64,000 bases of DNA from an uncultured Bdellovibrionales bacterium. GTDB lineage: Bacteria; Patescibacteriota; Minisyncoccia; Moranbacterales; DUUL01. The translations under genes and the position numbers were made by a program. Shown here piece by piece: positions 7,839-51,437 of this stretch. Under the pieces are notes generated by a model that ran no database searches, was not told where the DNA came from, and saw only the letters and a program-made list of their open reading frames with translations. The DNA lies in NCBI GenBank assembly GCA_964421125.1, contig CAYQVD010000001.1:56680-120679 (forward strand), read 5' to 3'. Within the stretch, counting starts at the first letter, position 1. Every line of letters begins with the position of its first letter.

Positions 7839-7853
7839 ATAAAAATAAATAAT

Positions 7854-8411
7854 ATGAAAATCGGATCACTACGTTTCTTGTTAATTATAGGAATTATTTT
7901 TACTTCTTTTGCAATTTTTTCAGGCAATGCTCTTGCTCAAGTTTGCATTGGAGATAATGGAAGCGATGGAGCTTGTGAATTCGGATGGTGCAGTGATGGG
8001 GAGAATATAGGAGATTCTGGAGATGATTGTGATATGGGGGATGTTTGCTGTGGGACAATTGGAGGAGGTAATACTGGAGGTAATACTGGAGCAACATCTG
8101 GTGTTCCTGTTGATTTAATCCCTGAAGGTCTTGGATTACCTGATCCCGGATTAACGAGTGGAGATCAAAGTGGAATTGAAGTGATACTCCTTGCTCTCTT
8201 GAATTGGCTCTTAATCATTTTCCTTATTGTATCTCTGATTGCTTTTATCATAACAGGGTTAATGTATCTTCTCGCAATGGGAAACTCCAGAACTGTCTTA
8301 ATGGAAAATGCAAAGAATTATTTCTATTATGCGGTGATAGCCCTGTTAGTGACTGGCTCAGGACTAATTATCGTTAATGTTATCAACAACTTTCTCAACG
8401 CAAGCCTTTAA
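7854..8411 (+). CDS. Pilin-family protein with an N-terminal Cys/Gly/Asp-rich module
   Basis: Signal peptide, then CIGDNGSDGACEFGWCSDGENIGDSGDDCDMGDVCCGT, a Gly/Thr linker and a pilin hairpin ...LLNWLLIIFLIVSLIAFIITGLMYLLAMGNSRTVLMENAKNYFYYAVIALLV. Confidence 0.6.
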   Translation: MKIGSLRFLLIIGIIFTSFAIFSGNALAQVCIGDNGSDGACEFGWCSDGENIGDSGDDCDMGDVCCGTIGGGNTGGNTGATSGVPVDLIPEGLGLPDPGLTSGDQSGIEVILLALLNWLLIIFLIVSLIAFIITGLMYLLAMGNSRTVLMENAKNYFYYAVIALLVTGSGLIIVNVINNFLNASL

Positions 8412-8440
8412 AAATTTTCATCATAACATTCTTAACAAAA

Positions 8441-8466
8441 AAGACACCAGAAGGTGTCTTTTTTTG
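8441..8466 (+). terminator. Rho-independent terminator closing the pilin array
   Basis: agacacc-agaa-ggtgtct followed by ttttttt. Confidence 0.75.
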
Positions 8467-8492
8467 AACTACAAACCATTACAATTTCATTA

Positions 8493-9494
8493 TCAAACTG
8501 ATTTTTCTATTAAATCCTTAGCCTTAACTAAAATAAAATTCCTTCTAGGTTCCGGTAAAAAAATTAAAGCCTGATCACTAATTCTAATATCAGCACCGGA
8601 CTTTTTTGTTTTTGGATTATTTTTGATTTTTAAAATCATAAATTTCTTTGCTAATTTATTTAAAAAATTGGCAACTCCAATTTTTTCCAAGAAAACTTCT
8701 ATATAAAAAGAAAATTTTGAAATATTTTTTGATTTTTTGATTTTATTACTTTCAATTAAATCAGACTGAAAATTTGGTAAAAATGCTTTATTTTTAAAAT
8801 CATTTAATTGATAAAAACGTCTAGCTGTATCATGACCAACCATCCAAAAAGAAAATGCAATTTCATTGGAAATAAAAATACCATCTTCTTCAAAAATAAG
8901 TCCCTCCTCAGTCAAATAATGATTTAAACAAAATCTATCTTTAACCATCTTCCCATGTCTCCTTTTTCCAAACAAACTTAAAGTTAACGACAAAAAAAGT
9001 CTTCCCAGCCAAATATAATCCTTTTTAACTATTACTAAAAGATCCCAATCACTTCCATGGTTAGAGTTTTTCATTGCCAACGTTCCATTAAAAATGACCG
9101 CTCGTAAAAATGGAATATTACGAAAAAGTTTATTCCACTTTATTATTTTTTTAATTTTTGTTATCGAAATTTTTTGTTTCAAAATTCGATTTTGAAAAAA
9201 ATCAGGTTCCTCCCTTCCCATTTTCCAAAAACCTTTTTGGAATGAAAGAAATAATCTTTCTTCTAATTCTCTTAGTGCTTCAATGACATCAATAAGCTCA
9301 CAACATTCTCTTCTCCCTTTAATGTCAATATAATGCCTCCAAACCTCAAAAGTCGTTGGAGTAAAATCCATCGCATTTAAATAAGCGACTGTAAATAGAA
9401 CGTTTTTATTAAGAGGATTCATAAAATTATTTAGTAATTCATATACATCCTTTCTGTCACAGTTGAAATATAGATAATGTATTTTCAAAAGCAT
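8493..9494 (-). CDS. Predicted nucleotidyltransferase-domain protein (Pol-beta superfamily NTase motif)
   Basis: 333-aa ORF containing FNGTLAMKNSNHGSDWDLLVIV, which fits the hG[GS]-x9-13-DhD NTase signature. No further family assignment possible. Confidence 0.4.
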   Translation of the reverse strand: MLLKIHYLYFNCDRKDVYELLNNFMNPLNKNVLFTVAYLNAMDFTPTTFEVWRHYIDIKGRRECCELIDVIEALRELEERLFLSFQKGFWKMGREEPDFFQNRILKQKISITKIKKIIKWNKLFRNIPFLRAVIFNGTLAMKNSNHGSDWDLLVIVKKDYIWLGRLFLSLTLSLFGKRRHGKMVKDRFCLNHYLTEEGLIFEEDGIFISNEIAFSFWMVGHDTARRFYQLNDFKNKAFLPNFQSDLIESNKIKKSKNISKFSFYIEVFLEKIGVANFLNKLAKKFMILKIKNNPKTKKSGADIRISDQALIFLPEPRRNFILVKAKDLIEKSV

Positions 9495-37064: not shown

Positions 37065-37805
37065 ATGAACTATCTCAAAGAACTGCAAAAATTAGGCTTA
37101 AAGAAAAATGAGGCGCAAGTTTATCTGGCCGGACTTAAGCTTGGTCCGACGATTATTTCAAATATCGCCCAAGAAACCAGCTTAAAAAGGACTAATATTT
37201 ATGCTTTAATTAATGTATTAATGGAAAAAGGCTTATTTAAACTAAAAGAGTCCGAGTTTAAGAAATACTACTGTGCTGAATCGCCTAAAAACCTCAAAAA
37301 TCTTGTTGAACAGCAAACTGATCAAATAATCAATTTGCTTGAATCTAAAGTAGAGAAGCATAAAAATACTGGCACCAATGAAGTTCTTCATTTTAAAGGA
37401 GTTGGCGGAATGAAAAATGCTTTCATGTCAATGCTTAATGATTTAAGAAAAGGAGATTTTTACTATGTAGTTAGTGACGGAAACAGATGGTATAACACAG
37501 ACCCAAAATTCTTCAAAAAATTCATGCGAAAAAGAGCTAAGAAAAATTTAGATTTAAGATTAATTTTAGTAGATAATGAATTTGGAAGACATTCTCTTAA
37601 ATACCAAAAAAACTACGGCAAAAAAGTAAAACTTCTACCTAAAGGAAGCGAGCTCAATGTCAATTTAGTTTTTAATCCGAATCGGGTTCTCACTCATCAA
37701 CTCACAGGAAATCGCATAACAACAATTTTAGAAAGTCCCGAAGCTGCTCTAGCGCAAAAACAAATTTTTGATATTGCATGGGAGAATCTAAAAACATCTG
37801 AATAA
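37065..37805 (+). CDS. TrmB-family transcriptional regulator (N-terminal winged HTH)
   Basis: LGLKKNEAQVYLAGLKLGPTIISNIAQETSLKRTNIYALINVLMEKGLF matches the TrmB N-terminal HTH pattern. Confidence 0.6.
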   Translation: MNYLKELQKLGLKKNEAQVYLAGLKLGPTIISNIAQETSLKRTNIYALINVLMEKGLFKLKESEFKKYYCAESPKNLKNLVEQQTDQIINLLESKVEKHKNTGTNEVLHFKGVGGMKNAFMSMLNDLRKGDFYYVVSDGNRWYNTDPKFFKKFMRKRAKKNLDLRLILVDNEFGRHSLKYQKNYGKKVKLLPKGSELNVNLVFNPNRVLTHQLTGNRITTILESPEAALAQKQIFDIAWENLKTSE

Positions 37806-37887: not shown

Positions 37888-39300
37888 ATGTTTGGAAACA
37901 AAAAAACAAGTGCTTCAAGTGACAACGATATTCAGCTAACAACTCGCTCAATGAAAAGTGATCTTGAAGGTGATTCTAGTAAAAAATTTGTAGAAAAAGA
38001 AAGAAAACCTCTTTCGAAAGCTCCTGAGAGAAAGAAGGAGTTAGAGATTCACAAAAAACCAGAAATTAAAAAAGTTCCAGAACCAATTGCAACACCAGCG
38101 AAAAGCTTTGATCTACCAACCAAAAAACCCCTTAGATCTACCACTCAGCCACAAATCAAAGAATCTGGAGAATTTAAACTGCCAACAGATTTTCCTGCTG
38201 CCAACAAAATGCCTGCCAAAACAACAGTTGACAAGTCACTTGAAAAACAATTCGGGGATAAGAAAGAAAAAACTCACGCTAATGATTTTTCTCCAGAAAA
38301 TAAGTCAAAGGAAGAATTTCCAAAAAATCCAATAATTAATCCTAAAAAAGAACCTGTACAAAGCGCTAAATTAAAACCAATAAACCCTGCTCTAAAGAAA
38401 GACTATGATAAATTCTTTAAAGATAAAATTAGTCCACTTCCAGAAAAGGAAAACAAAAATAGTTCATCAAGCATGATTCTAGTAATCATCCTTGTGATTG
38501 TTTTAATTATCGCAATTGCCTCTGGAACGTACTATTACTTTTTTGTAATCAATAAACCCGTAACACCAACTGAATTACCAATTATATCCGATCCAACACC
38601 AATCTTCCCTGTTGATTCAACGCCGGTTCAACCCCCTAAAGAACCTCTTCCAATCGTTTTAACAGAAGCAAGTGAGATGATAATAACTGCCGAAAAAGAT
38701 ACAAGAGTTATTTTTTTCGACCCTCAAAATTCTGAAAATCTCATCTCTGGATTCTATTCCATTGAGAATGAAGAAGGGCTACTAATGAATGTCAAAGACC
38801 TTTCAACTTTATTAAACATTCAAATGCCAGAATCTATTGAAACTGCTTCACAAAATGCATGGATTTACTACGATGCAACAATCACACCAAAAATTAGCCT
38901 TGTAATTAAGATTGACTCCAAAGATACATACGAAGTGAAAAATTCTATTATGAATATTGAAAATAATCTTCCAATTATGTTTTCAGGACTTTACTCAGCT
39001 CCTATTGATAAATATTCAACAGGGGAAACAGTAATCTTTAAAGATAGTTTTGAAAATTTAAATTTTCGATATTACAATATTTCAACAACTCCGTCTGACT
39101 TAAAATCGCTTGATTGGGGAATAATTAATAACGATACTATTTTAGTTTTTGCTACATCAAAAGAAATGGCTTCAACTATCTCAAATCAATTATTGATCAA
39201 TGATATTCCAAATAATACAACTAAGGAGGTTATATTAGAGAATACCCCTGAGGATGTTACTCCCGGAGATATTCTTGAAAATGAAGCAGTTGTGGATTAA
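37888..39300 (+). CDS. Membrane-anchored (single TM, Lys/Pro-rich cytoplasmic N-terminus) protein with extracytoplasmic domain; paralog A
   Basis: TM ILVIILVIVLIIAIASGTYYYFFV. The C-terminal 80 aa are identical to those of 39543..40583. Confidence 0.55.
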   Translation: MFGNKKTSASSDNDIQLTTRSMKSDLEGDSSKKFVEKERKPLSKAPERKKELEIHKKPEIKKVPEPIATPAKSFDLPTKKPLRSTTQPQIKESGEFKLPTDFPAANKMPAKTTVDKSLEKQFGDKKEKTHANDFSPENKSKEEFPKNPIINPKKEPVQSAKLKPINPALKKDYDKFFKDKISPLPEKENKNSSSSMILVIILVIVLIIAIASGTYYYFFVINKPVTPTELPIISDPTPIFPVDSTPVQPPKEPLPIVLTEASEMIITAEKDTRVIFFDPQNSENLISGFYSIENEEGLLMNVKDLSTLLNIQMPESIETASQNAWIYYDATITPKISLVIKIDSKDTYEVKNSIMNIENNLPIMFSGLYSAPIDKYSTGETVIFKDSFENLNFRYYNISTTPSDLKSLDWGIINNDTILVFATSKEMASTISNQLLINDIPNNTTKEVILENTPEDVTPGDILENEAVVD

Positions 39301-39542: not shown

Positions 39543-40583
39543 TTGCTAAAAAAATTAAGAGAAGAAAAAAATATGAATCATAAAGTTATTAACCCAGAAA
39601 GTGCTCGAAATAATACTATGAAAGAAAAACCGCTAACAATTACTAAAAATAAAACATTATCTAGTTCAAGGGAAACCATTACTCCTGCATCCAAAGACTA
39701 TGATAAGTTTTTCAAAGACAAGATTAAAAAATCTCCAGAAAAAGAAGAAAAAAATGCATCATCAAGTCTCACTCTTATTATTATTCTTATAGTTATTTTA
39801 ATCATTACAATTGTTTCTGGCTTTTATTATTATTTCTTTGTGCTCAGTAAGACACCAATTCCAGTTAAGCCACCAATTACCATTGAACCAGATCTAAATT
39901 TTCCAGTTGAGCCACTGGCTGAAAAAGCTTTTCCTTTTGTATTGACAAACTCACCTGAAATAGTACTAACTACTAAAAATGACATTAAGGTTATTTTATT
40001 CGACCCTCAAAATCCTGAGAATCTTACATCTAACTTCTATTCCATTAAAAACGAAGGAGGCATGGCAATGAACATCAAGGAACTTTCACTTCTCCTTGGA
40101 ATTCAAATACCCGAAATTATTAACGCCACACCTGAAAACACTTGGATTTATTATAACTCATCAGCAACGCCTGAAATTAGCCTTGTTATTGGTATTGATA
40201 TAGAAGATGCCGTGGAAATAAAACAATCAATCCTGAAAATGGAAAACGAACTTCCAAAGATGATGTCGGGTTTATATTCAACTCCTATTATTGAATATCT
40301 AATTGAGAAAACATTGTTATTTAAGGATAGTTCTGATGATCAAGCTTTCCGATATTACAATTTTGCAACAACTCCGTCTGACTTAAAATCGCTTGATTGG
40401 GGAATAATTAATAACGATACTATTTTAGTTTTTGCTACATCAAAAGAAATGGCTTCAACTATCTCAAATCAATTATTGATCAATGATATTCCAAATAATA
40501 CAACTAAGGAGGTTATATTAGAGAATACCCCTGAGGATGTTACTCCCGGAGATATTCTTGAAAATGAAGCAGTTGTGGATTAA
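39543..40583 (+). CDS. Membrane-anchored protein, paralog B (tandem duplicate of 37888..39300)
   Basis: Same TM and ectodomain architecture (KDYDKFFKDKI...SSS-TM). C-terminus identical to paralog A. The true start may be the Met at 39573. Confidence 0.55.
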   Translation: MLKKLREEKNMNHKVINPESARNNTMKEKPLTITKNKTLSSSRETITPASKDYDKFFKDKIKKSPEKEEKNASSSLTLIIILIVILIITIVSGFYYYFFVLSKTPIPVKPPITIEPDLNFPVEPLAEKAFPFVLTNSPEIVLTTKNDIKVILFDPQNPENLTSNFYSIKNEGGMAMNIKELSLLLGIQIPEIINATPENTWIYYNSSATPEISLVIGIDIEDAVEIKQSILKMENELPKMMSGLYSTPIIEYLIEKTLLFKDSSDDQAFRYYNFATTPSDLKSLDWGIINNDTILVFATSKEMASTISNQLLINDIPNNTTKEVILENTPEDVTPGDILENEAVVD

Positions 40584-40685: not shown

Positions 40686-40692
40686 GAAAGAA

Positions 40693-40721
40693 TTGACCGT
40701 TGCCTCAAAAAATGCTATAAT
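40693..40721 (+). promoter_or_regulatory. Near-consensus sigma70-type promoter: -35 TTGACC, 17-bp spacer, extended -10 TGcTATAAT
   Basis: ttgacc gttgcctcaaaaaatgc tataat, read directly. No protein-coding ORF of 60 aa or more follows for about 470 bp. Confidence 0.55.
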
Positions 40722-40727
40722 AGACAT

Positions 40728-41160
40728 GTAAGTTAGTTCTTTAGAAAAAATCTGACATTTCATGGGTTGCAATGAACTTCAGCGAGATGAACTCCAGCCA
40801 CGATTTCCCCCTATTCGTGACTGGAATTCATCTTACTGTTTCATTTCATCTTTAAAAACAAAAATAAAAAAAGATCACCCAAAAACAAAAACAAAAATTG
40901 AGTAAAATCATGAAATGGTTAGATGAAACATCACTTAATTAAGTGATACCTCCCAATCTTGATATTAAAAAACTTAGTATTATATTTTGTTTTCGGACGA
41001 AATAAATCTATTTTAAATCAAGACTGGTACCGGTGGCGCTAGCCACATATTAATTTTTTTGGGCTCAGCGCCCCGGTTTCCTTACTAAAACCAAAATGCA
41101 CCGGTTACAGATTCAGACAAGAACGACTCACTTGAGGCCGTTTTTTTTATTAAACTTTTC
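40728..41160 (+). ncRNA. Candidate noncoding transcript or long structured leader. AT-rich 5' part, then a GC-rich 3' part with stable hairpins and three palindromic CCGGT sites, ending in a T8 run
   Basis: Predicted from the upstream promoter. Contains gtggc-gcta-gccac and gggc-tcagc-gccc hairpins, ACCGGT at two sites, and tttttttt at 41149..41156. Only 51-aa and 10-aa ORFs without RBS. Confidence 0.35.
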
Positions 41161-41191
41161 AATATATTTAAATTAATGCTATAATATTAAT

Positions 41192-42976
41192 ATGACAAAT
41201 ATACATATAGAAAGAAAAATTGAAGTTAATCGTTGGTTAATAAAAGCTCGTTGGTTTTACGGATTTGGTATTTTTTTAATTGGTATTGTTTCAAAAATTC
41301 TTAGTAACTCTAATGTAAACTTCTCGGTTATCAACATGCTTACATTGATAATAGTTTTTACTTTAATTAATGTTGTTTTTGAAATATCCTTTCGTCAGAT
41401 TCGCAAAAAACGCTCTATCCGAGGATTAAACATCCTCAGTTTTTCTCAAATGGCCGTTGAACTTGGGATCCTGCTTATTGTAATGCATTCCGCTGGAGGA
41501 GTAGAAAGCATTGGAATTACATTCTTTTTCATACCAATCGTTTCTGCTTCCTATTTATTCAGTGCTAAAGGTTCAATAATAACTGCTATTGCTTCAACCG
41601 TCCTTGTTAATGCCTTAGTAACATTAGAGTACTTTGAGATCATTCCCCACGTAGCAAGATACAACACTCCTTCTCCTGAGCTAAACAGCCTAGCTCTATC
41701 CTTAACTATAACCATAACAATTTCAATATTTTATCTAATAATAGGAGTCTATAGTGGATATGGAGCAAAACTTCTCTTTAAACGAGAAGAACTTCTGGAA
41801 AATCAAAAAAAGCAACTTAGTAAAAAAACTAAACTTCTCTCCAATCGTGAAAAAACTTTGTCCAATATAAACGCTGAATTAACTGAAGAAAAAAACAAGA
41901 TAGGATCAATTGTTGCCAACTTTACTGGTCCGATTATATTTATAAATAGTAAAAAAGAAATTGGGCTTATCAATCCATCTGCAAAGGAAGTTTTAGGAAT
42001 TAGCGAAAATGATTATGGTGTAAAAATTTCATCTAAAAATAACTACAGCTTGGATAATTTTAATAAGCTAATAAAAAATGAATTTGAAATTCAAAGTCAT
42101 GAAGGAGAAATGGATGAAAACAACAAACCAATTGAGGAAGTTGAAATTAAATATGAGGATCAAACTAAAACATATAAAGTAATAACCACTTCTGTATGTC
42201 GAGGGAAAGACAAGGATGCTTGTTATGGATTTCTAAAAATATTCTATGACTTAACTCGAGAAAAACAAATTGATAAACTAAAATCAGAATTTATCTCCAT
42301 TGCCGCTCATCAACTTAGAACGCCTCTCTCTGCAATTAAATGGGTAATCAAGATGATTCTAGATAAAGACGTTGGACCTCTTAACAAAGAACAATCTGAA
42401 TTACTTGAAAAGGGGTACAAAAGCAATGAAAGAATTATTGAGTTAGTAAATGACCTTTTGAATGTTTCAAGAATCGAAGAAGGAAGATTTGGTTATGATT
42501 TCAATATGTGTGATCTTCAGGAAATTCTTGACATTGTTACAGAAGACACTGAAAGATTTATCGCAAAAAATCATCAAAAATTTCTCATTAATAAACCAGA
42601 GAATCTACCAAAAATCTATATGGACAAAGAACGAGTTCTTTTGATTATTCAGAATCTTCTAGATAATGCAGTAAAATACACTCCAGAGTTTGGCAAAATT
42701 GAAATTAATATAAAAAAACAAAATGATGAATTTATTGAAATTTCTGTTCAAGATAACGGAGTTGGTGTACCTGAAGAAGATAAAATTAAATTATTTTCAA
42801 AATTTTTCCGAGCAAAGAACGTAATACGAATGGAGACCGAGGGAAGTGGACTCGGATTATTCATTGCTAAAAACATCGTAGAAAAACATCACGGTCAAAT
42901 ATCTGTTGAAAGCAGAGAAGGAAAAGGAACAACGGTTAGTTTTACATTGCCTCTCAAAAAGAGTAACATGGAATAA
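41192..42976 (+). CDS. Membrane-bound sensor histidine kinase (6-TM sensor domain, coiled coil, PAS-like, HisKA, HATPase_c)
   Basis: H-box FISIAAHQLRTPLSAIKW; N, G1 and G2 boxes (LLDNAVKYT, DNGVGV, GSGLGLFIAKNIV). Extended -10 TGcTATAAT ends 5 nt before the ATG, so the mRNA is possibly leaderless. Confidence 0.85.
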   Translation: MTNIHIERKIEVNRWLIKARWFYGFGIFLIGIVSKILSNSNVNFSVINMLTLIIVFTLINVVFEISFRQIRKKRSIRGLNILSFSQMAVELGILLIVMHSAGGVESIGITFFFIPIVSASYLFSAKGSIITAIASTVLVNALVTLEYFEIIPHVARYNTPSPELNSLALSLTITITISIFYLIIGVYSGYGAKLLFKREELLENQKKQLSKKTKLLSNREKTLSNINAELTEEKNKIGSIVANFTGPIIFINSKKEIGLINPSAKEVLGISENDYGVKISSKNNYSLDNFNKLIKNEFEIQSHEGEMDENNKPIEEVEIKYEDQTKTYKVITTSVCRGKDKDACYGFLKIFYDLTREKQIDKLKSEFISIAAHQLRTPLSAIKWVIKMILDKDVGPLNKEQSELLEKGYKSNERIIELVNDLLNVSRIEEGRFGYDFNMCDLQEILDIVTEDTERFIAKNHQKFLINKPENLPKIYMDKERVLLIIQNLLDNAVKYTPEFGKIEINIKKQNDEFIEISVQDNGVGVPEEDKIKLFSKFFRAKNVIRMETEGSGLGLFIAKNIVEKHHGQISVESREGKGTTVSFTLPLKKSNME

Positions 42977-43016
42977 ATCTCTACGAATTAAACTAAAATA
43001 AATTTAAAATAAAGAA

Positions 43017-44237
43017 ATGGAATTCTCCTTTTTGTCTTTTGTTCATTTTTTAAGTCTGGCAACTTTTTTGTTTTTTACTGTCTTCATCTTACACAAAGAC
43101 CTAAAAAGCACCCTTAACAGAATAACAGCCGCATATCTTGCATGTTTTGTGGTTTGGAGTGCAGGGATGTTTTTTATTAATAACACAGGAACAACTTATG
43201 AGGGAGCTATCCTGGCTAATAAATTTGATTCCTTTGGATGGATCTCTTTTCCTGCCTTCTTTTTTTGGTTTACCTTAGTTTTCATTAAAAACAAAAGGTT
43301 TTTAGAAAAAATATATAGCGCAATAATACTTTTCATTCCAACTATTTTCTTTATTTTTCAGCAATTGCAAGGAAAATTAATTTATACTTTTGAAAAAACT
43401 TCCTATGGTTGGTCTCATGTATGGTCTAATTCTATTTATACTTATCTATTTTATTTTTATTACACCCTTTTTACCTTAATTCCAATATATTTATTAATTA
43501 AGTATTATAAAAAATCTTCATCTGTAATAAAAAGAAAGCAAGCAAAAATAATCATCATTTCATCAATTATTCCTTTAACAATTGGGACTCTTACAAATGT
43601 TATTTTTCAAGAATTTGGTTTTCATAAAATCCCCTCAGTTGCTGATGTCTCTGCTCTTTTTTGGTCTTTTGGAATTGTCTACGCTGTAGTTAAATATAAA
43701 TTTCTTGGAATTACACCAGTAACTGCTGCAGAAAACATCATAGAAACTATGTCAGATGCTCTTATTTTAATAAATCTACAAGGGGAAATAAATACCATTA
43801 ATAAAGCTACGCTACAGCTTTCTGGTTATAGTGAAAAGGAAATAAAAGAGATAGGATTAAATGGACTTTTCATGGAAGACAATTTCAGTGAAATGATTAT
43901 AAATAAGGCTATTAATGGATTAACAATTAATAATTATAATTTACTACTAATAACAAAAAAAGGAAACAATATTCCAGTTATATTCTCAAACTCCCTACTA
44001 AAAAATAAAGAAGGTCACATAATAGGAATTACTTGTATTGCAAAAGATATTACTAAACTTAAAAAAACAGAAGAACAACTAGAAAAAAGAGCCTGGGAAT
44101 TAGAAACTAAAATCAAAGAATTAGAAAAAATACAAAAATTAACTATTAATAGAGAATTTAAAATGATTGAGTTAAAAGAAGAAAATAAAAATCTTCGAGA
44201 AAAGATTGAAGTGCCCAAAAAAACAACTAACCAATAA
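43017..44237 (+). CDS. Integral membrane sensor protein (7 TM) with cytoplasmic PAS domain and coiled coil, no output domain
   Basis: N-terminal polytopic region, then ENIIETMSDALILINLQGEINTINKATLQLSGYSEKEI...GHIIGITCIAKDITKLKKTEEQL (PAS signature). Confidence 0.6.
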   Translation: MEFSFLSFVHFLSLATFLFFTVFILHKDLKSTLNRITAAYLACFVVWSAGMFFINNTGTTYEGAILANKFDSFGWISFPAFFFWFTLVFIKNKRFLEKIYSAIILFIPTIFFIFQQLQGKLIYTFEKTSYGWSHVWSNSIYTYLFYFYYTLFTLIPIYLLIKYYKKSSSVIKRKQAKIIIISSIIPLTIGTLTNVIFQEFGFHKIPSVADVSALFWSFGIVYAVVKYKFLGITPVTAAENIIETMSDALILINLQGEINTINKATLQLSGYSEKEIKEIGLNGLFMEDNFSEMIINKAINGLTINNYNLLLITKKGNNIPVIFSNSLLKNKEGHIIGITCIAKDITKLKKTEEQLEKRAWELETKIKELEKIQKLTINREFKMIELKEENKNLREKIEVPKKTTNQ

Positions 44238-44262
44238 ATATTATAATCTTTATTTCAAAAAA

Positions 44263-44865
44263 ATGCTTAATAAAAAAATAGTCAATAATTTATTAAAAAG
44301 TATCAAAGGCGATGTTCGTGGTGTTGTTTTTAAAACTGATGCAGAATTTATTAAAGAAAAATTCGGAGAAGAAGGACTCGAAAAACTTCAAAGTGCGGCT
44401 AAAAAGATGGATATTCCAATCGACTATAAAGGAGAAATTAACGCTACAAGATGGTATCCGCTAAGCTGGAGAGTTCTTTCAATTCTCCTCATCCAAGAAG
44501 TATTTGGTTGGAACGATGAAAAAATAATTGAAATGGGAGAAGCTGCCCCCAAATACTCTTTTATAATAAAGACTCTTTTGCGATATTTTTTATCACTTGA
44601 GAAAACTTTTTCTGAAATTTCAAAATATTGGGATGAACATTATTCTGTTGGCAAACTAGTTGTTCCTGATCCAACCGTAGTTAATGAAAATTATCTCCTT
44701 TTTTATTTAAAGGACTTTAAGGTACATCCAATTATGTGTGAATATTATAAAGGATACTTTCTGTCTGTTTGTAAGTTAATAATCAAATCAGAAAATATGG
44801 TTATAGAAGAAACCAAATGTATGTTTAAAGGAGATGACTATCATGAATTTAAAATAACTTGGTAA
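44263..44865 (+). CDS. Small cytoplasmic protein of unknown function (about 200 aa), first of two tandem paralogs inside the kinase island; possibly a ligand-binding accessory (V4R/H-NOX-like is only a guess)
   Basis: Paralog of 44872..45477 (shared WxPxxxxV/I, FxWNxxxIIxMG, HPxxxxxxxG motifs). Start taken at MLNKKIV to avoid overlap with the upstream gene. Confidence 0.4.
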   Translation: MLNKKIVNNLLKSIKGDVRGVVFKTDAEFIKEKFGEEGLEKLQSAAKKMDIPIDYKGEINATRWYPLSWRVLSILLIQEVFGWNDEKIIEMGEAAPKYSFIIKTLLRYFLSLEKTFSEISKYWDEHYSVGKLVVPDPTVVNENYLLFYLKDFKVHPIMCEYYKGYFLSVCKLIIKSENMVIEETKCMFKGDDYHEFKITW

Positions 44866-44871
44866 AATAAA

Positions 44872-45477
44872 ATGGAAAAATTACACTTTAAAAGCTTCAA
44901 GAAAGAATTTGCAGATATAAATAAACTAAAAGGAGAAGAACGCGCTTTAGATCTGAAATACGTAACTGAATATGTTAAAAAGAAGGAAGGAGAAGTAAAA
45001 TACAATCTTCTCTTGAAAAAACTTAAAAAAATTGGCTTTATTTTGCCCGAAATAAATGAATCAGACAAAATGGATTGGATTCCTATGAAGATCCCTGTAT
45101 TTTTTGTTATAGCTAGTGCAAAATTTTTCAATTGGAACCGTCAAAATATAATTAACATGGGACGTAATTTCATAACTTTTTCACCGCTACTTAAAATATT
45201 TATAAAATATTTTATTTCTCCAGAAAAAACACTTGGATCAGGAGCTGAAAATTGGAAAAAGCATTACACACTAGGAGAATTAGAACTTGTTAAATATAAC
45301 GAGCAAGAGAAAGAAATTGTCCTTCATATTAAAAATTTTAAAACTCATCCAGTAGATTATATTTTTATAATTGGATCTCTTGAAAAAATGGGTGAACTTT
45401 CCTTAGGTCTTAAAAATATTAAAGGAGAAGGAGTCCAAAGAGATGCTTATTATGAAATTATCTTTCACTGGAATTAA
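44872..45477 (+). CDS. Small cytoplasmic protein, second tandem paralog
   Basis: 201 aa. Aligns with 44263..44865 (NWNRQNIINMGRNF versus GWNDEKIIEMGEAA; FKTHPVDY versus FKVHPIMC). Confidence 0.4.
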   Translation: MEKLHFKSFKKEFADINKLKGEERALDLKYVTEYVKKKEGEVKYNLLLKKLKKIGFILPEINESDKMDWIPMKIPVFFVIASAKFFNWNRQNIINMGRNFITFSPLLKIFIKYFISPEKTLGSGAENWKKHYTLGELELVKYNEQEKEIVLHIKNFKTHPVDYIFIIGSLEKMGELSLGLKNIKGEGVQRDAYYEIIFHWN

Positions 45478-45492
45478 TCAATACAAAAAATA

Positions 45493-47094
45493 ATGAAAAA
45501 CCAACAGGATAAATTATCTCAACAAATATATGAAGACATAGAAAGTCTAGAAAAATATATAGAAGAATTTTCGTTCTTTCTTCCTCTTGCAGTCTGCACT
45601 ATAAATCCAAGAAAAGTTATTGTTGATATTAATGAATCTACTAAAAAAATTACAGGTTTTACAGAGATTGATCTTATTGGAGAATATGCCAGCAAACTAT
45701 TTGAAAATAAATCCTTAATTGATGCCTTCTTAAAGGAAGTAATAGAAAAAGAAATTCTCAAAAATAAAGAAATGGTCCTCATTACCAATAAAGGTGAAAA
45801 AATTTCCGTTAATGCATCTGTCGCCAAACGAACAGATCGTGAAGGAAACTTTATTGGATTCTTTTTAGCTATTTCAGATATAACAGAAATAAAAAAACTT
45901 CAAGAAGGATTGGAAGATAAAGTTGCCAAAAGAACAAAAGAATTAGAAAGAACAAAAAAATCTCTAATTAACATGCTTGAAGATACTGAAGACGCAAGGA
46001 AAAAAGTTGAAGATGAAAAGAATAAAACGTCTGCAATTCTTTCAAATCTCGTTGACCCTATAATAGTAGTAAATGAAAATGGGTTAATAATACTACTTAA
46101 TCCAGCAGCTAAAAACGTTCTTGGTTTAAGTGATAATAATCTTGGACAAAAAGCCTTTAGTGATGATAATCTTTCAATGAATAACTTTCACAAAATTGCC
46201 CGAAAAGATTTTGAAGTTAAGGAAGTAATTAGTCCTGATTCAAACGAAGAGAATAACAACGAGGAATTAATTATAAAAAATGGTGACAAGGAATCAATTT
46301 ACAAAGTAATAACAGCTAAAATCTTTGATAGAGACATCTACCTAGGAACCATGAAAATATTTCACGACCTCACTCGAGAAAAAGCAATCGATCAAATGAA
46401 GTCAGAATTTATTTCCATTGCTGCCCATCAGCTAAGAACGCCTCTCTCTGCAATTAAATGGATACTTAAAATGGTTTTAGATGGAGATAGTGGAAAATTA
46501 AATGAGGAACAAAAGGAGTTACTTGACAAGGGCTATAAAAGTAATGAAAGAATTATTGGATTAGTAAATGATCTTCTTAATGTTTCTAGAATTGAAGAAG
46601 GAAGATTTGGTTATAACTTTGACATGTGTGATCTTCAAGAAATAATTGATATTGTTAAAGATAACACCAAGAATCTTATAAAAAAGAACAGTCAAACGTT
46701 TAAAATTACTAAGCCTCTCAATTTACCAAAGGCTTATATTGACAAAGAACGAATTTTACTAGTCCTGCAGAATCTTGTTGATAATGCCATAAAATATACT
46801 CCAGAATTTGGAAAAATTGAAATTATCATTAAAAAACAAAAAAACAAATTTCTTGAAATCTCTGTTAAAGACAATGGGGTTGGTGTTCCAGAAAAAGATA
46901 AGGTTAAGTTGTTTACAAAATTTTTTCGAGCAACCAACGTAATGCGAATGCAAACTGAAGGAAGCGGTCTTGGATTATTTATTGCAAAAAATATTATCGA
47001 AGAACATAAAGGAAGAATTTACATCGAAAGCGAGGAAGGAAAAGGAACAAAAATAAATTTTACATTGCCCTTAAAAAGTAGTAAAATAAAGTAA
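45493..47094 (+). CDS. Cytoplasmic sensor histidine kinase (PAS, PAS-like, HisKA, HATPase_c); C-terminal 250 aa paralogous to 41192..42976
   Basis: Identical H-box FISIAAHQLRTPLSAIKW. Catalytic domain about 80% identical to the first kinase. Confidence 0.85.
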   Translation: MKNQQDKLSQQIYEDIESLEKYIEEFSFFLPLAVCTINPRKVIVDINESTKKITGFTEIDLIGEYASKLFENKSLIDAFLKEVIEKEILKNKEMVLITNKGEKISVNASVAKRTDREGNFIGFFLAISDITEIKKLQEGLEDKVAKRTKELERTKKSLINMLEDTEDARKKVEDEKNKTSAILSNLVDPIIVVNENGLIILLNPAAKNVLGLSDNNLGQKAFSDDNLSMNNFHKIARKDFEVKEVISPDSNEENNNEELIIKNGDKESIYKVITAKIFDRDIYLGTMKIFHDLTREKAIDQMKSEFISIAAHQLRTPLSAIKWILKMVLDGDSGKLNEEQKELLDKGYKSNERIIGLVNDLLNVSRIEEGRFGYNFDMCDLQEIIDIVKDNTKNLIKKNSQTFKITKPLNLPKAYIDKERILLVLQNLVDNAIKYTPEFGKIEIIIKKQKNKFLEISVKDNGVGVPEKDKVKLFTKFFRATNVMRMQTEGSGLGLFIAKNIIEEHKGRIYIESEEGKGTKINFTLPLKSSKIK

Positions 47095-47123
47095 AATAAA
47101 TAACTACAATAAAAAATAAACAA

Positions 47124-47966
47124 ATGGAAAATAAAACAGCAAGAATACTTTTAGTAGAAGACGAAGAAGCGTTAGCAGATGTTCTTGAAGCTAAACTAAA
47201 AAAAGAAGGACATGAATTAAAAGTATCCTACAACGGAGAAGATGGTTATGAACAAATCAAAAATTGGAAGCCTGATTTAATCCTGCTCGATATTGTAATG
47301 CCAAAAATGGATGGGTATGAAGTTCTTGAAAAAATGAATGAAGAAGGAATTAAAATTCCAGTAATTATTATTTCAAACTCTGGTCAACCAGTTGAAATTG
47401 AAAAAACAAAGAAACTAGGAGCAATTGATCATTTAATCAAAACTCAATTTGATCCAAAAGAAGTTGTGGATAAAGTTCAAAAATATTTAGTATCTTCTAG
47501 TAAGAATTCGGGTCAAGAAGAATCCAATGCTTCAATAGAAGAAGAAGTTATCCAACCTCGAAAAGAAGAAGGAGCAAAAAAAAGCATCAATATTAAGGTA
47601 ATGCTAGTTGAAGATGATTCTTTTTTGAGAGATATTTGTGCTAAAAAATTGAGCAAGGAAGGATTTGAAGTTTATGAAGCAATCGACGGCGAAGAAGCAT
47701 TAAAAATTGTTGATAAAGTTAAACCAGATATTGTACTTCTAGATATTATACTCCCTGCTATTGATGGATTTGAAGTGCTTGAAAAAATTAGGAGTAATCC
47801 AAATCCAGAAACTCAAAAAGTTCCAATTATTATGCTTTCAAATCTTGGGCAAAAAGATGATATTGAAAAAGCTTTGAAAATTGGAGCCAATGACTATCTC
47901 GTAAAAGCCCACTTTAATACTGAAGAGATTATCGATAAAATCAAAAAAGAACTTGGGAAAGAATAG
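47124..47966 (+). CDS. Response regulator with two tandem receiver (REC) domains and no output domain
   Basis: ILLVEDEEALADVL...LDIVMPKMDGYEVL and VMLVEDDSFLRDIC...LDIILPAIDGFEVL. Both have the phospho-acceptor Asp context and conserved Lys (LIKTQF / LVKAHF). Confidence 0.85.
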   Translation: MENKTARILLVEDEEALADVLEAKLKKEGHELKVSYNGEDGYEQIKNWKPDLILLDIVMPKMDGYEVLEKMNEEGIKIPVIIISNSGQPVEIEKTKKLGAIDHLIKTQFDPKEVVDKVQKYLVSSSKNSGQEESNASIEEEVIQPRKEEGAKKSINIKVMLVEDDSFLRDICAKKLSKEGFEVYEAIDGEEALKIVDKVKPDIVLLDIILPAIDGFEVLEKIRSNPNPETQKVPIIMLSNLGQKDDIEKALKIGANDYLVKAHFNTEEIIDKIKKELGKE

Positions 47967-47991: not shown

Positions 47992-48017
47992 AAAAACGCC
48001 TTCAAGGCGGTTTTTTG
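47992..48017. terminator. Bidirectional rho-independent terminator (between the response regulator and convergent ileS)
   Basis: aaaaacgcc-ttcaa-ggcgg followed by tttttt. Confidence 0.7.
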
Positions 48018-48041: not shown

Positions 48042-51000
48042 TCAACTTTTCAACCAAAAATTGATTTCTATACCATCAATTTTTACTTGTTTTTCAATGT
48101 CAGCTTCTGGTTTTTGATTGCCAGCTTTTCCAAGCTTGATTGCTAATACTTCCTTGGAAATTTCTGTCTTAAACTTTTCAAAAATTTCTTCCCCACCTTT
48201 ATAAAAGACCTCTATCCGATCATCAATCTGAAAATCAGCTTCTTTTCGAGCTTGTTGAATGTGACGAATAAGCTCTCGCATCTGACCTTCGATTTTGAGT
48301 TCAGGGGTAATTGTTGTAATAACTCCTAAAACTGCTATTTCAAAAAAATCAACAGTGGGAGTGTCTCCTTCATTAGATGGCTCACTTTTAACCCCCAAAG
48401 AAATTGCGACATCATTAGACTCTTTAATTTCATTAACCCTCGTAATGAGCTTAACATTTAACTCTTCTTTTATGATGTCGTTAATTTCATTGTTTAATTT
48501 TTCAATAATTTGAACTTCTGAAAGTGGTTGCCTGACTTTTATTTTCTGAGATGCTCGCACCTCTAACCCCCTCTTAACCAATTCTCGCGCAGAAGCCATC
48601 TCCTCGTTCAATTCCTTGTTAATCATTTTCTTATCAGCAATTGGGAAATCACAAAGGTGGACAGATTCTCCCTCTGTTAAATTTCTATAAATTTCTTCGG
48701 AGATGAAAGGAGCGAATGGTGCTAAAACCTTTGAAAATTCAGTCAGAACTGTCCAAAGCGTTTGATAGGCATCATTCTTGTCGTCATCACTTTCACTTTT
48801 CCAAAACCTCTTTCTACTTCTCCTGATATACCAATTAGAAAGATTGTCAACAAATTGTGGGAAAAATCTAGTTGCTTTATTCAACTCATATTTCTCCATC
48901 GCTGAATCAACATCTCGAATCAACATATTTAATTCTGATAAAATCCATTTATCCAATAAGTTTTTTGGTTCAACTTTTTCTCCTGGAGTCCAGTTATCAA
49001 TGCTGGCATAAAGAGTGAAAAATGAATAAGAATTTTGAATCATTCGAAACATCCCTCGAGAAAATTCAGAAAGCTCTTTTTCTGAAAAATTCAAATTCTG
49101 AGCACGAACAACTGGCGAATGAAGAAGATAAAATCTCAAAATATCTGCTCCGTATTTTTCAATCATCTCGGTTGGATCTGGATAATTCTGAAGTTTTTTT
49201 GCCATTTTCTTTCCATCTTCCGCCAAAACAATTCCATTCACAATTACATTTTGAAAGGCTTTTTTGTCAAAAATCCCAACAGCAATAGCGTGAAGATAAT
49301 AAAACCATGCCCTGGTTTGATCAATCCCTTCAGCAATAAACTCGGCTGGGAAACTTTTTTCAAATTTTTCTTTATTTTCAAACGGATAATGTACCTGAGC
49401 ATATGGCATTGAACCACTGTCAAACCAGGTATCCAATACATCTGGAATTCTTTTCATTTCTTTTTTACATTTTTCACAAGGAAAGGTAATCTCATCAACT
49501 ACATGCTTGTGAAGATCTTTAACTTTCTTACCACTCAAGTCTTCAAGCTCCTTCGCACTTCCCAAGACTTTCATTTCTCCACATTCACACTTCCAAATCG
49601 GCATTACAGATGCCCAATAACGCTGACGACTGATTGACCAATCTCTCGCTCCTTCAAGCCAGTTACCCCAACGACCTTCTTTAATATTATCAGGTTCCCA
49701 ATTAAGCTCCTTAGCATGTTCTAGCATTTTTTCTTTAATTTTTGTAATCGCCACAAACCAAGAAGATGTCGCATAATTTATCAAAGGCGTATCACACCTC
49801 CAACAATGCGGATAGCTATGTTCGTATTTCTTTTTTGAAAAAAGAAGGCTATTGTGTGCAAGATATTTAATAATTTCAATATCGGTTTTCTGATGATCAT
49901 CGCGAGGCTTCACTGAAAGTCCTGCAAAATCTTTAGCTTCAGCTTTAATCGCTCCATTCATTCCAACGTGCTGAATAAAGGGTAAGTTATTTTCTTTTCC
50001 AAAATTCATATCATCTTCACCAAAAGCAGGAGCGATATGAACAACTCCAGTCCCTTCTTCAGTCGTCACAAAATCTCCTGCATAAATCTTCCAACCATTT
50101 TCTTTATTTTCTAAACTATCTTGACTTGAATAATAATCAAAAAGAGGCTTATAATTCAGACCAATCAATTCTTTCCCTTTAATTTCAATTACAAAATCAT
50201 AATTCTTATCATTAAAAACCTCATTAATTCTATCTTTTGCTAAAATATAAAAATCATTTTCATGTTTTACTAAAAAATATTTAACATCTTTGCCAATAGC
50301 CAATGCAACATTTCCAATCAATGTCCATGGAGTAGTTGTCCAAGCCAAAACATAAACTCGTGGAGGACTTTTTTCTGTTTCCTCATCCGCTCTTTTTGCC
50401 TTATCCTTAAGATAAGATTTTATAGCATTTTCCGTCGGCTCGTAATCTATTTCGGGCAAATTATCAAAAGAAAACCATTCAATCTTTTCTGTTTCATCAG
50501 GCACTAAATTTTCTGGTTCACCTTTTATCCTGGTTAGATAACAAACTGTATCAAAAAGTCGTCCTTCTATAAACTCTGGATTGTGAATAATTGGCTCTGC
50601 TAATTCAATATTAACCCCTAGTTCTTCTTTTATTTCTCGTTCAAGTGCTTGACGAAAAGTCTCTCCTTCATCAACTTTACCCCCAGGCATAGCCCAAGTT
50701 TCTCGACGTCTGTCCTCTTTACGACGAATAAGTAATATCTCATCTTTATCATTAAAGATAAGCGCACCTACCCCTCGGCCAGTTTTACCCTTACAATATT
50801 TTAATTCAAATTTAGATATTACAGAAAGATCCTTAATATCTTTATATCCTTCTGAAATTTCAGTTTGCGAAAGAGTTGTTTCACATCGAGGACAAATATG
50901 CATCGACCGATATCCCTCATAAATCAGATCTTTTTCATAAAGCTTTTTGAACACCCACCAAACTGATTCCATATATTCAAGGTCCATAGTTTTATAACTA

Positions 51001-51437
51001 TTGTCCATATCAGCCCAACGTCCCATTTTCTCAATAACCTTTTCCCATTCTTCCACATAGCCCAAAACCTTAGTCCGACAGGTTTCATTGAACTTTTCTA
51101 CTCCCAATTCTTCAATTTCCTTTTTATTAGAAATTCCAAGGTCTTTTTCTGCAATATTTTCAATTGGTAATCCATGACAATCCCAACCCCATCGACGTTC
51201 CACTCGAAAGCCTTTCATTGTCCAATAACGCGGGATAACATCTTTCATGGTACTTCCTACAATATGACCATAATGAGGAGCTCCTGTTGCAAAAGGAGGG
51301 CCATCATAGAAACTATAGAGCTTTTTCTCACTTCTTTGTTCCACAGACTTCTCAAAAGTTTTATTTTCTTTCCAATACTCAGTTTGCTCATTTTCCATTT
51401 CTGAATATTTCCTTCTTGTATCTACTGGTTTGAACAT
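48042..51437 (-). CDS. ileS: Isoleucyl-tRNA synthetase (type 2, eukaryote/archaeal-like) carrying an embedded Nudix hydrolase domain
   Basis: N-terminus MFKPVD...EYWKENKTF; HIGH region YDGPPFATGAPHYGH; editing domain AWTTTPWTLIGN and TGVVHIAPAFGEDD; KMSKS variant GKKMAKKLQNYPDP. Residues about 216-345 insert GALIFNDKDEILLIRRKED...PGGKVDEGETFRQALEREIKEELGV (perfect Nudix box). Confidence 0.9.
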   Translation of the reverse strand: MFKPVDTRRKYSEMENEQTEYWKENKTFEKSVEQRSEKKLYSFYDGPPFATGAPHYGHIVGSTMKDVIPRYWTMKGFRVERRWGWDCHGLPIENIAEKDLGISNKKEIEELGVEKFNETCRTKVLGYVEEWEKVIEKMGRWADMDNSYKTMDLEYMESVWWVFKKLYEKDLIYEGYRSMHICPRCETTLSQTEISEGYKDIKDLSVISKFELKYCKGKTGRGVGALIFNDKDEILLIRRKEDRRRETWAMPGGKVDEGETFRQALEREIKEELGVNIELAEPIIHNPEFIEGRLFDTVCYLTRIKGEPENLVPDETEKIEWFSFDNLPEIDYEPTENAIKSYLKDKAKRADEETEKSPPRVYVLAWTTTPWTLIGNVALAIGKDVKYFLVKHENDFYILAKDRINEVFNDKNYDFVIEIKGKELIGLNYKPLFDYYSSQDSLENKENGWKIYAGDFVTTEEGTGVVHIAPAFGEDDMNFGKENNLPFIQHVGMNGAIKAEAKDFAGLSVKPRDDHQKTDIEIIKYLAHNSLLFSKKKYEHSYPHCWRCDTPLINYATSSWFVAITKIKEKMLEHAKELNWEPDNIKEGRWGNWLEGARDWSISRQRYWASVMPIWKCECGEMKVLGSAKELEDLSGKKVKDLHKHVVDEITFPCEKCKKEMKRIPDVLDTWFDSGSMPYAQVHYPFENKEKFEKSFPAEFIAEGIDQTRAWFYYLHAIAVGIFDKKAFQNVIVNGIVLAEDGKKMAKKLQNYPDPTEMIEKYGADILRFYLLHSPVVRAQNLNFSEKELSEFSRGMFRMIQNSYSFFTLYASIDNWTPGEKVEPKNLLDKWILSELNMLIRDVDSAMEKYELNKATRFFPQFVDNLSNWYIRRSRKRFWKSESDDDKNDAYQTLWTVLTEFSKVLAPFAPFISEEIYRNLTEGESVHLCDFPIADKKMINKELNEEMASARELVKRGLEVRASQKIKVRQPLSEVQIIEKLNNEINDIIKEELNVKLITRVNEIKESNDVAISLGVKSEPSNEGDTPTVDFFEIAVLGVITTITPELKIEGQMRELIRHIQQARKEADFQIDDRIEVFYKGGEEIFEKFKTEISKEVLAIKLGKAGNQKPEADIEKQVKIDGIEINFWLKS

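Follow-up and report, generated by a model that had tools for sequence, protein, structure and literature searches.

The 64,000-nucleotide (nt) stretch of patescibacterial DNA analysed here, called the window below, is AT-rich (~31% G+C), and its positions 41192-47966 are filled by six open reading frames (ORFs), which the ORF list places on the plus strand. They encode two histidine kinases (HK1 and HK2), a seven-transmembrane (7TM) sensor with a PAS domain, two small paralogous proteins (A and B) and a protein made of two receivers (REC-REC), in the order HK1, 7TM-PAS, A, B, HK2, REC-REC. As described below, this operon is a lineage-specific elaboration of a signalling cassette that is spread across Patescibacteria.

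41192-42976, plus strand: HK1, 594 amino acids (aa); ~6 transmembrane (TM) segments, a PAS-b-like domain, HisKA (His373, nt 42308-42310) and HATPase_c.
43017-44237, plus strand: 7TM-PAS protein, 406 aa; HisKA_7TM (PF16927, E 7.6e-15) and PAS_9 (E 1.4e-10), no kinase domain.
44263-44865, plus strand: HNXL-A (protein A), 200 aa; the mechanically called ORF, 44206-44865, opens at TTG 44206.
44872-45477, plus strand: HNXL-B (protein B), 201 aa; paralog of A with the same fold.
45493-47094, plus strand: HK2, 533 aa; PAS-a, PAS-b, HisKA (His312, nt 46426-46428) and HATPase_c.
47124-47966, plus strand: REC-REC, 280 aa; two Response_reg stretches (E 6.6e-51) and no other domain.

Because all 96 homologue clusters of A are ~200 aa long, its start is likely ATG 44263, which lies past the stop codon of the preceding gene.

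The six genes form one real signalling operon: the spacers between consecutive genes measure 40, 25, 6, 15 and 29 nt, the sole convincing terminator in the region is a bidirectional hairpin after REC-REC, and the complete six-gene order recurs in relatives (loci L002-L006 and L014), with proteins 70-77% identical. The close relatives of the window are Patescibacteria metagenome-assembled genomes (MAGs), and the nearest species representative is “Patescibacteria group bacterium UBA2193” (DCVH01000032), whose protein A is 77% identical. Promoter-like sites inside the operon are at chance level (61 found, against 51 ± 6.7 by chance). An earlier note on this DNA had called the stretch a compact signalling island and had allowed that independent terminators might split it into several operons; no internal terminator was detected, and the description as a single unit holds. 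The island is not unique, as the spread of the cassette makes plain. Two sites mark the ends of the operon:

41156-41185, plus strand: promoter-like site, TTTTCA, an 18-nt spacer and TATAAT, with a TG upstream that makes an extended -10 (TGCTATAAT).
47997-48016 (hairpin 47997-48009), both strands: terminator-like hairpin CGCCTTCAAGGCG of the intrinsic type, with T-runs on both strands.

The hairpin is shared by the operon and the convergent IleRS gene. The extended -10 box TGCTATAAT stops 6 nt short of the HK1 ATG, and this -10 region is kept in L002 and L003. If the site acts as a promoter, its distance to the ATG suggests a leaderless or near-leaderless operon transcript. No recognisable Shine-Dalgarno sequence precedes any of the six genes, whose upstream regions are A-rich; together with the short distance at HK1, this suggests that the host organism may use leaderless or otherwise non-Shine-Dalgarno translation initiation.

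HK1 and HK2 are paralogs with a common transmitter and different sensors, as the earlier note had it. They are 59% identical over the last 403 residues (E 7e-155), FISIAAHQLRTPLSAIKW is present in both, and at the DNA level 300 nt around the H-box show 80% identity. Both give full-length HisKA and HATPase_c matches, their phospho-accepting His373 and His312 sit in the sequence AAHQLRTP, and their cores are closest to PnpS/WalK/PhoR. In HK1 the Pfam match to PAS is weak; a hydropathy scan places five N-terminal segments above threshold, and a weaker sixth, at residues 21-37, can be recognised by eye. The same scan finds no TM segment in HK2, which has two PAS domains and is the soluble, conserved core kinase of the cassette. 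The DHp α1 helices of the two kinases differ by V/I/L exchanges only. Skerker and co-workers reportedly placed, in 2008, the partner specificity of HisKA kinases largely in this helix and the start of α2, so HK1 and HK2 are expected to act on the same receivers.

With their kinase boxes and receiver residues, the encoded proteins make up an orthodox two-component system. Pfam finds neither an Hpt domain nor a kinase-fused receiver in any of the six proteins, which speaks against a multi-step phosphorelay; instead of the branched phosphorelay that had been proposed, the layout is that of two kinases converging on one receiver pair. Nor is this a CheA/CheW/MCP system: the kinases are of the HisKA type, and no CheW or MCPsignal match occurs in the operon or in the related sensors described below. 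Inside one genome the kinase cores of HK1 and HK2 are 64% identical in the window, 68% in L002 and 62% in L012, while HK1 of the window and HK1 of L012 share 57%. Since identity within a genome exceeds that between genomes, these comparisons suggest repeated duplication or gene conversion of the kinase cores.

The last protein of the operon contains nothing but receivers, as stated earlier. RECa (aa 7-122) carries Glu12-Asp13, Asp56, Ser84 and Lys106 and RECb (aa 159-273) carries Glu163-Asp164, Asp207, Ser239 and Lys261, with a linker of ~35 aa between them. Both keep the E-D / D / S / K residues of CheY positions 12, 13, 57, 87 and 109, so the phospho-acceptor residues that the earlier note wanted checked, Asp56 and Asp207, are intact. 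The two receivers (REC1 and REC2) are 41% identical. Their nearest relatives are OmpR-family receivers, and the winged-helix domain is absent; as the note had observed, the cluster encodes no DNA-binding output. RECa and RECb represent two conserved orthologous groups, with W/H and Y/F, respectively, at CheY position 106: of 40 first receiver genes in other cassettes, 38 are nearer to REC1, and of 40 second ones all are nearer to REC2. REC-REC is, by these sequence relationships, a fusion of two genes that are separate and adjoining in most relatives, so it is better described as two conserved single-domain regulators in one chain than as the special phosphate sink or relay node it had been taken for. 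A comparable dual-receiver protein is FrzZ.

Proteins A and B, which had been described as ~200-aa accessory paralogs, are indeed related to each other (26% identity, E 2e-19), and we name their family HNXL (H-NOX-like). Pfam returns a V4R match to the last 40 residues of A that is below threshold (PF02830, 23.3 bits, E 7e-5; gathering score 31 bits) and no match to B, and searches of PDB sequences with A, B and a 42-sequence family profile gave no meaningful match. AlphaFold models made from family alignments have a pLDDT of 91.7 and a pTM of 0.89 for A and a pLDDT of 93.7 for B. The best fold matches of both models are H-NOX proteins, with 156-169 of ~190 residues aligned: the models display the N-terminal helical and C-terminal α/β subdomains of H-NOX, and the V4R/Bet3-type fold is recognised as well. 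A and B are thus H-NOX-like in fold, as judged from predicted structures, and the family has a V4R-type metal site. Both folds were among those the earlier note had put forward for checking, and neither paralog matched the housekeeping family that would have spoken against a signalling role.

The most conserved polar feature of HNXL is Cys159/Glu183/Cys186/His194, a putative zinc-type site that is intact in 230 of 279 members (82%), including A. B has Tyr at the places of Cys159 and His194 and lacks equivalents of Glu183 and Cys186; the motif W-x-x-H-Y-x-x-G is kept. A degenerate metal site like that of B is found in 25 of the 279 members (~9%), and in the cassettes examined (L014, L018, L037, L044 and L092) the degenerate copy is accompanied by other HNXL copies. 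Further signs of kinship with V4R come from the relatives of A and B: PF02830 matches 19 of 42 of them at E ≤ 0.01, two members exceed the V4R cut-off (P0101 with 31.3 bits and P0102 with 35.2 bits), two others carry a precomputed PF02830 match (P0005 and P0041), NCBIfam gives a weak match of the family to the V4R half of MsvR, and some members bear the JGI label “predicted hydrocarbon binding protein”. The HNXL fold has a ligand cavity, and the fold is ligand-binding throughout the superfamily, in H-NOX, DmpR/PoxR and TRAPPC3.

An exhaustive profile search returned 1051 HNXL clusters (50% identity) at E ≤ 1e-3, 342 of them at E ≤ 1e-30. Nearly all are ~200 aa long and nearly all come from Patescibacteria. 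Among the 150 best matches the exceptions in architecture are P0101 and P0102, which are HNXL-HNXL tandem fusions, and P0177, in which REC is fused to HNXL (Response_reg 30.9 bits). The high-G+C contig of L086, labelled Enterobacterales, has a homologue at 7563-8597 with a PAS-kinase-REC hybrid after it; this is either a rare HNXL outside Patescibacteria or part of a mis-binned contig.

The 7TM-PAS protein, with seven hydrophobic segments in the hydropathy scan, had been described as a PAS membrane sensor without output. It has no enzymatic output, in that no kinase domain is present; its end, on the other hand, is not featureless, since the C-terminal coiled coil carries a motif, REFKMIELK (aa 379-387 of 406, ~nt 44151-44177), that is common to many transmitter-less sensors. 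The consensus, LExxVxERTKELxEKxxELERFxKLTVGRELKMIELKEEIKKLK, lies at the very C-terminus of these proteins and is absent from both HK1 and HK2. The input modules in front of it are diverse: among 28 motif-bearing proteins we found HAMP in 9, flavodoxin-like domains in 7, PAS in 4, dCache in 3 and Cache_3-Cache_2 in 2, and the 6TM module of HK1 is likewise found with the motif. An HNXL gene lies directly 3' of 31 of 40 genes for motif-bearing sensors, at a median gap of ~13 nt. Comparison with Pfam and with PDB sequences gave generic coiled-coil noise only, and a protein database search with the 55-aa motif-bearing segment gave 16 candidates, all short fragments. A degenerate, His-less DHp helix was considered as the origin of the motif and rejected, as hhalign found no similarity between 43 motif segments and 65 kinase DHp regions.

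The 6TM module occurs by itself, ending in the C-terminal motif, in L010, L018, L063 and L070, and it is fused to the kinase core in HK1 of the window and again in L012. The fusion argues that sensors of this kind work through this type of kinase.

To see how general this arrangement is, as the co-occurrence analysis suggested by the earlier note required, we used a scan of one genome per species, which gave 79 loci, 77 of them species loci with an HNXL gene that were used for counts. ORFs were called in all loci and labelled by profiles of the window's own domains, and the labels were checked with Pfam. The loci are labelled almost exclusively as Patescibacteria (Nealson-, Portnoy-, Gribaldo- and Jacksonbacteria, Paceibacter, Paceibacterota and many Saccharibacteria-labelled MAGs), and several genomes hold multiple HNXL loci. 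Gene order is conserved across them. The dominant order is a motif-ended transmitter-less sensor, 1-5 tandem HNXL genes, a soluble PAS-PAS-HisKA-HATPase kinase and two receiver-only genes. The kinase directly follows HNXL in 42 of the 77 loci; receiver genes lie at most three genes away in 35 of these 42 cassettes, as two genes in 28 and as one fused gene in 7, and at least one motif-bearing sensor is encoded upstream in 27 of the 42. The cassettes contain one HNXL copy in 24 loci, two in 10, three in 5, four in 1 and five in 2. A one-to-one pairing of sensors with HNXL proteins was therefore rejected, since 1-5 HNXL copies per cassette stand against 0-2 motif-bearing sensors.

What follows the last HNXL gene is also constant in kind: in 58 of 86 cases the next protein opens with a PAS-a-type domain, which has the cap ...LExYIxEFxxFLPLxxC..., and is a kinase in 42, a C-motif protein in 9 and an HD-GYP or other protein in 7. 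At loci without a kinase after HNXL, PAS proteins are the commonest neighbours (15 of 88), followed by HD_5, FIST and kinase domains with 3 each. Where HNXL identity has fallen to 35-40%, the core of HNXL, PAS-kinase and REC-REC is still present, with different genes on its flanks. Beside some cassettes lie genes for FIST_N/FIST_C proteins, whose domain type is that of NosP, a sensor of NO (L007/L008 4386-5714, and 3 of 88 neighbours elsewhere), so families that accompany H-NOX in Proteobacteria recur here. The flanks show some recurrence of their own. Upstream of the annotated loci L007/L008 and L010/L011 are a divergent T2SSE (PilB-like) ATPase, TsaE and a 5'-3' exonuclease, and ORFs that match these in size and order are found in many other loci (L015-L079); the gene immediately 3' of the receivers encodes Fpg in 9 of 28 cassettes and DUF3048 in 8 of 28. 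Inheritance of gene order could explain this, as could a functional connection with pili or with the repair of oxidative damage.

Several known systems resemble parts of the cassette. hnox genes usually adjoin those for kinases or cyclic di-GMP (c-di-GMP) enzymes, and H-NOX inhibits kinase autophosphorylation (PMC8738867, PMC4436077). The systems of Shewanella (HnoX-HnoK), Vibrio (HnoX-HqsK) and Legionella (Hnox2 with lpg2458/lpg2457) have in common with HNXL a stand-alone sensor-fold protein of ~190-200 aa whose gene lies directly beside that of a kinase or of an HD-GYP/c-di-GMP enzyme, and the H-NOX-associated kinase sometimes feeds a CheY-like receiver without an output domain (PMC8738867), as proposed here. 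Unlike H-NOX, HNXL has no HNOB match, does not conserve the haem His or Y-x-S-x-R and carries the Cys/Glu/Cys/His site instead; it occurs in tandem arrays of 1-5 paralogs, it is nearly confined to Patescibacteria, and its partner kinase always opens with one particular PAS domain.

With V4R proteins (PF02830; DmpR/PoxR/MopR, MsvR and MJ1460), HNXL has in common the C-terminal α/β half and the pattern Cys...Glu..Cys-x7-(Cys/His). The site resembles the V4R zinc ligands of DmpR, Cys151, Glu172, Cys177 and Cys185 (PMC7264223), and the spacing of C159, C186 and H194 matches that of the redox-active V4R cysteines of M. acetivorans MsvR, C206, C232 and C240 (PMC3729527). HNXL departs from V4R in that A scores below the Pfam cut-off (23 vs 31 bits) and B is unmatched, in an extra N-terminal helical subdomain that gives it an H-NOX-like full-length architecture, in having His and not Cys as the last ligand, and in standing alone beside two-component proteins, where V4R is fused to AAA+ or HTH (helix-turn-helix) outputs. 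Among published descriptions the closest concerns MetOD1, which serves methanogen response regulators as an output domain and is said to combine a secondary structure like that of HNOB with conserved cysteines of the V4R type (Galperin et al. 2018, PMC5847659). By description, which is the level at which the two were compared, MetOD1 has the same hybrid character as HNXL, and it is likewise tied to two-component signalling, as the REC-HNXL fusion P0177 illustrates for HNXL; it differs in being archaeal and a receiver-fused output, whereas HNXL proteins are bacterial and stand alone, with their genes placed before that of the kinase. Finally, one kinase serving two distinct receiver-only proteins that act by contact, as proposed here, is found with PilG/PilH in Pil-Chp and PixG/PixH in Synechocystis Tax1 (PMC11181946). 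Those systems differ from the cassette, whose kinase is of the HisKA/PhoR-WalK type and not CheA, which has no CheW or MCP genes and whose receivers are OmpR-family-like.

We propose that the operon encodes a multi-input, one-output two-component system built on a widespread cassette, with A and B as its coupling or sensing subunits, and hold this interpretation to be an even call. Gene content, operon layout, intact catalytic and acceptor residues, the folds, the conserved site and the gene order across species are observed; the physical contacts, the direction in which the signal runs through HNXL, the stimulus and the output are inferred. The state of the 7TM-PAS sensor would pass through its C-terminal helix to the HNXL pair, a coupling suggested by the double adjacency of HNXL genes to a C-motif before and a PAS-a domain after them. 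A would be the subunit with the metal site and B its degenerate partner, the two probably forming a heterodimer; dimers such as A:B are suggested by the tandem fusions P0101 and P0102 and by the pairing of intact with degenerate copies. In soluble guanylate cyclase, a haem-free α subunit partners a haem-binding β H-NOX. The HNXL pair would then act on the N-terminal PAS-a of HK2 and set its autophosphorylation, in the way that stand-alone H-NOX acts on a neighbouring kinase. Because the fold has a cavity and A bears the Cys/Glu/Cys/His zinc-type site, A may additionally sense a small hydrophobic ligand or thiol oxidation. HK1 would provide a second input, as a 6TM sensor fused to a copy of the same PAS-b/kinase core, and both kinases would phosphorylate Asp56 and Asp207 of the fused RECa-RECb. 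As this protein has no output domain, it must act on its target by protein contact. The Cys site, the flavodoxin-type sensors and the Fpg gene downstream in 9 of 28 cassettes give only a hint that redox or oxidative stress might be the stimulus. A bolder version would make the system a modular, non-covalent sensor kinase, in which many transmitter-less sensors (7TM-PAS, 6TM, HAMP, Cache, flavodoxin and PAS) with the same ~45-aa C-terminal helix dock via HNXL onto the N-terminal PAS domain of one shared, soluble kinase; we think this rather unlikely.

Several observations weigh against our proposal. Gene adjacency carries no signalling direction, and the fusion P0177, together with the role of MetOD1 as an output domain of archaeal response regulators (PMC5847659), means that HNXL could act downstream of a receiver. 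The kinase does not directly follow HNXL in 35 of the 77 loci, and in 15 of the 42 cassettes the eight genes before the kinase include none for a motif-bearing sensor, so that the coupling of such sensors cannot be the only role of HNXL. It is from residue identity and spacing that zinc binding by HNXL is proposed. The greater likeness of HK1 to HK2 within a genome (64%) than of HK1 to HK1 across genomes (57%) blurs the duplication history.

Other explanations assign HNXL a different part. A and its relatives might be haem-based gas sensors, in which NO or O2 at the haem iron inhibits the adjacent kinase, as in HnoX/HnoK. The fold matches and the hnox-like gene syntax, beside kinases, HD-GYP proteins and single-domain receivers and with FIST (NosP-like) genes near (PMC8738867), would suit such sensors, as would the near-invariant W-x-x-H-Y, which ends a helix equivalent to H-NOX helix α-F by secondary-structure order, the basis on which haem-ligand equivalence was judged here in place of a residue-level structural alignment. 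The expected haem ligands are nevertheless not conserved: at the candidate proximal residue, His126, 56% of the 279 members have His and 27% have Tyr, and the strand that precedes the last long helix has LKDFKxHP in place of Y-x-S-x-R. HNOB (PF07700) matches neither A, B nor the 42 relatives (E ≤ 0.1 / 0.01), while the T. tengcongensis H-NOX sequence, included as a control, scores 161.5 bits in the same scan; an hhalign comparison of the family profile with genuine H-NOX gives 5% probability and is out of structural register. The best-conserved polar feature is the V4R-type site, and Patescibacteria are generally not known to synthesise haem. We regard haem-based sensing as very unlikely. A place for HNXL at the other end of the pathway, where phosphorylated RECa or RECb would bind it and alter its ligand binding or activity, like a split REC-MetOD1, would account for the natural fusion P0177, for the published role of the similar MetOD1 domain (PMC5847659) and for the lack of any other output in the operon. 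It accords poorly with the position of HNXL genes, which lie upstream of the kinase and never between or after the receivers, and with the loci at which HNXL pairs with PAS-HD-GYP and PAS-C-motif proteins and no receiver is encoded nearby; moreover, a single REC fusion occurs among the 150 best representatives, and HNXL copies vary from 1 to 5 while the receiver pair is constant. These points make an output role quite unlikely in our judgement.

HNXL proteins could also be pure scaffolds that bind no ligand and, like CheW, tether transmitter-less sensors to the kinase. The adjacencies on both sides (31 of 40 C-motif sensors directly before an HNXL gene, a PAS-a protein after 58 of 86 last HNXL genes), the interleaving of sensor and HNXL genes in L007, L037, L050 and L070 and the persistence of copies without a metal site (25 of 279) are what scaffolds would lead one to expect. 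We still find this unlikely, given that 15 of 42 cassettes have HNXL without an upstream C-motif sensor, L044 even with five copies, that the metal site is retained in 82% of members of a family whose fold binds ligands throughout the superfamily, and that the growth of tandem arrays of diverging copies resembles a diversification of specificity. Last, the genes might be neighbours by inherited gene order only, with the kinases in separate pathways whose partners are encoded elsewhere. Unrelated genes are indeed kept as well (T2SSE, TsaE and the 5'-3' exonuclease upstream, Fpg or DUF3048 downstream), yet the core outlasts the change of its flanks down to 35-40% HNXL identity, three independent kinds of fusion join components of the cassette, the DHp helices of the kinases are near-identical, and the genes are 6-40 nt apart with no internal terminator, all of which makes mere neighbourhood most improbable.

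Outside the operon, the surroundings of HK1 and of the terminator hold further features. Upstream of the operon lies a regulator gene:

37065-37805, plus strand: TrmB-family HTH regulator (PF01978, E 4.8e-13).

The earlier note had seen in it the one DNA-binding output available to the island. In L005 the TrmB gene is directly upstream of HK1; there are four TrmB matches among all loci, in the closest clade only. TrmB was therefore rejected as an output of the system, and it lies outside the conserved cassette.

Between the gene for a 346-aa membrane protein and HK1 lies a candidate structured non-coding RNA of ~425 nt (window 40690-41152, plus strand). It has a near-consensus promoter at 40693-40721 (TTGACC, a 17-nt spacer and TGcTATAAT), a 41-nt hairpin (~40783-40830) that is conserved with L002 save for one base in the 3' arm, a second strong stem at ~41027-41076 and a hairpin with a T-run at ~41128-41150. 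The predicted fold has a minimum free energy of -115.8 kcal/mol, compared with -74.2 ± 5.5 for shuffled sequences (z = -7.6), and seven compensatory pairs distinguish it from the L002 copy. Rfam gave no credible family, also at a relaxed threshold. The candidate was seen only in the closest relatives, L002, L003 and L014, and a metagenome scan with the hairpin loop added one truncated contig; L005 lacks it between TrmB and HK1, so the RNA is no obligatory part of the operon.

The 346-aa protein (39543-40583, plus strand) is a paralog of a 470-aa protein encoded at 37888-39300 on the same strand. Both have one long hydrophobic stretch, and at E ≤ 1e-4 Pfam assigns neither to a family. The two proteins end in the same 50 C-terminal residues, and upstream of this part a 300-nt DNA repeat is 66% identical, signs of a partial duplication in the recent past or of gene conversion; L002 and L014 have a single 410-aa gene at this place. 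On the other side of the operon, the IleRS of the window (48042-51437, minus strand, 1131 aa) has a NUDIX domain inserted in its catalytic domain (PF00293, 84 bits, residues 219-331), and the 1160-aa IleRS whose gene takes the corresponding place in L002 has instead a His_Phos_1 match (PF00300), listed between two tRNA-synt_1 matches. The insertion point may thus carry a variable hydrolase cassette.

Hardly any work exists on signal transduction in the candidate phyla radiation, and full-text searches directed at these subjects yielded no account of the cassette, of patescibacterial HNXL proteins or of the motif that ends the sensors. The parts of the cassette belong to known superfamilies, and the logic of accessory sensor, kinase and receiver-only protein is already known; the HNXL subfamily and the C-terminal motif of the sensors are possibly two new modules. 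Three things are defined here: a family of ~1000 clusters that joins an H-NOX architecture with a V4R metal site, the C-terminal motif of the sensors, and the core of kinase and twin receivers. Should the proposed model fail, what remains is an ordinary though well-conserved two-component operon. If the coupling through HNXL holds, it would show how reduced genomes connect several inputs to one kinase, and accessory sensors that control a neighbouring kinase, as known for H-NOX and NosP, would gain a non-haem branch. And if the modular sensor kinase were real, the C-terminal motif and HNXL would be two previously undescribed signalling modules, an orthodox two-component system would have a many-to-one design like that of chemoreceptor arrays, and a minimal genome would integrate many inputs with a single kinase and one receiver pair.

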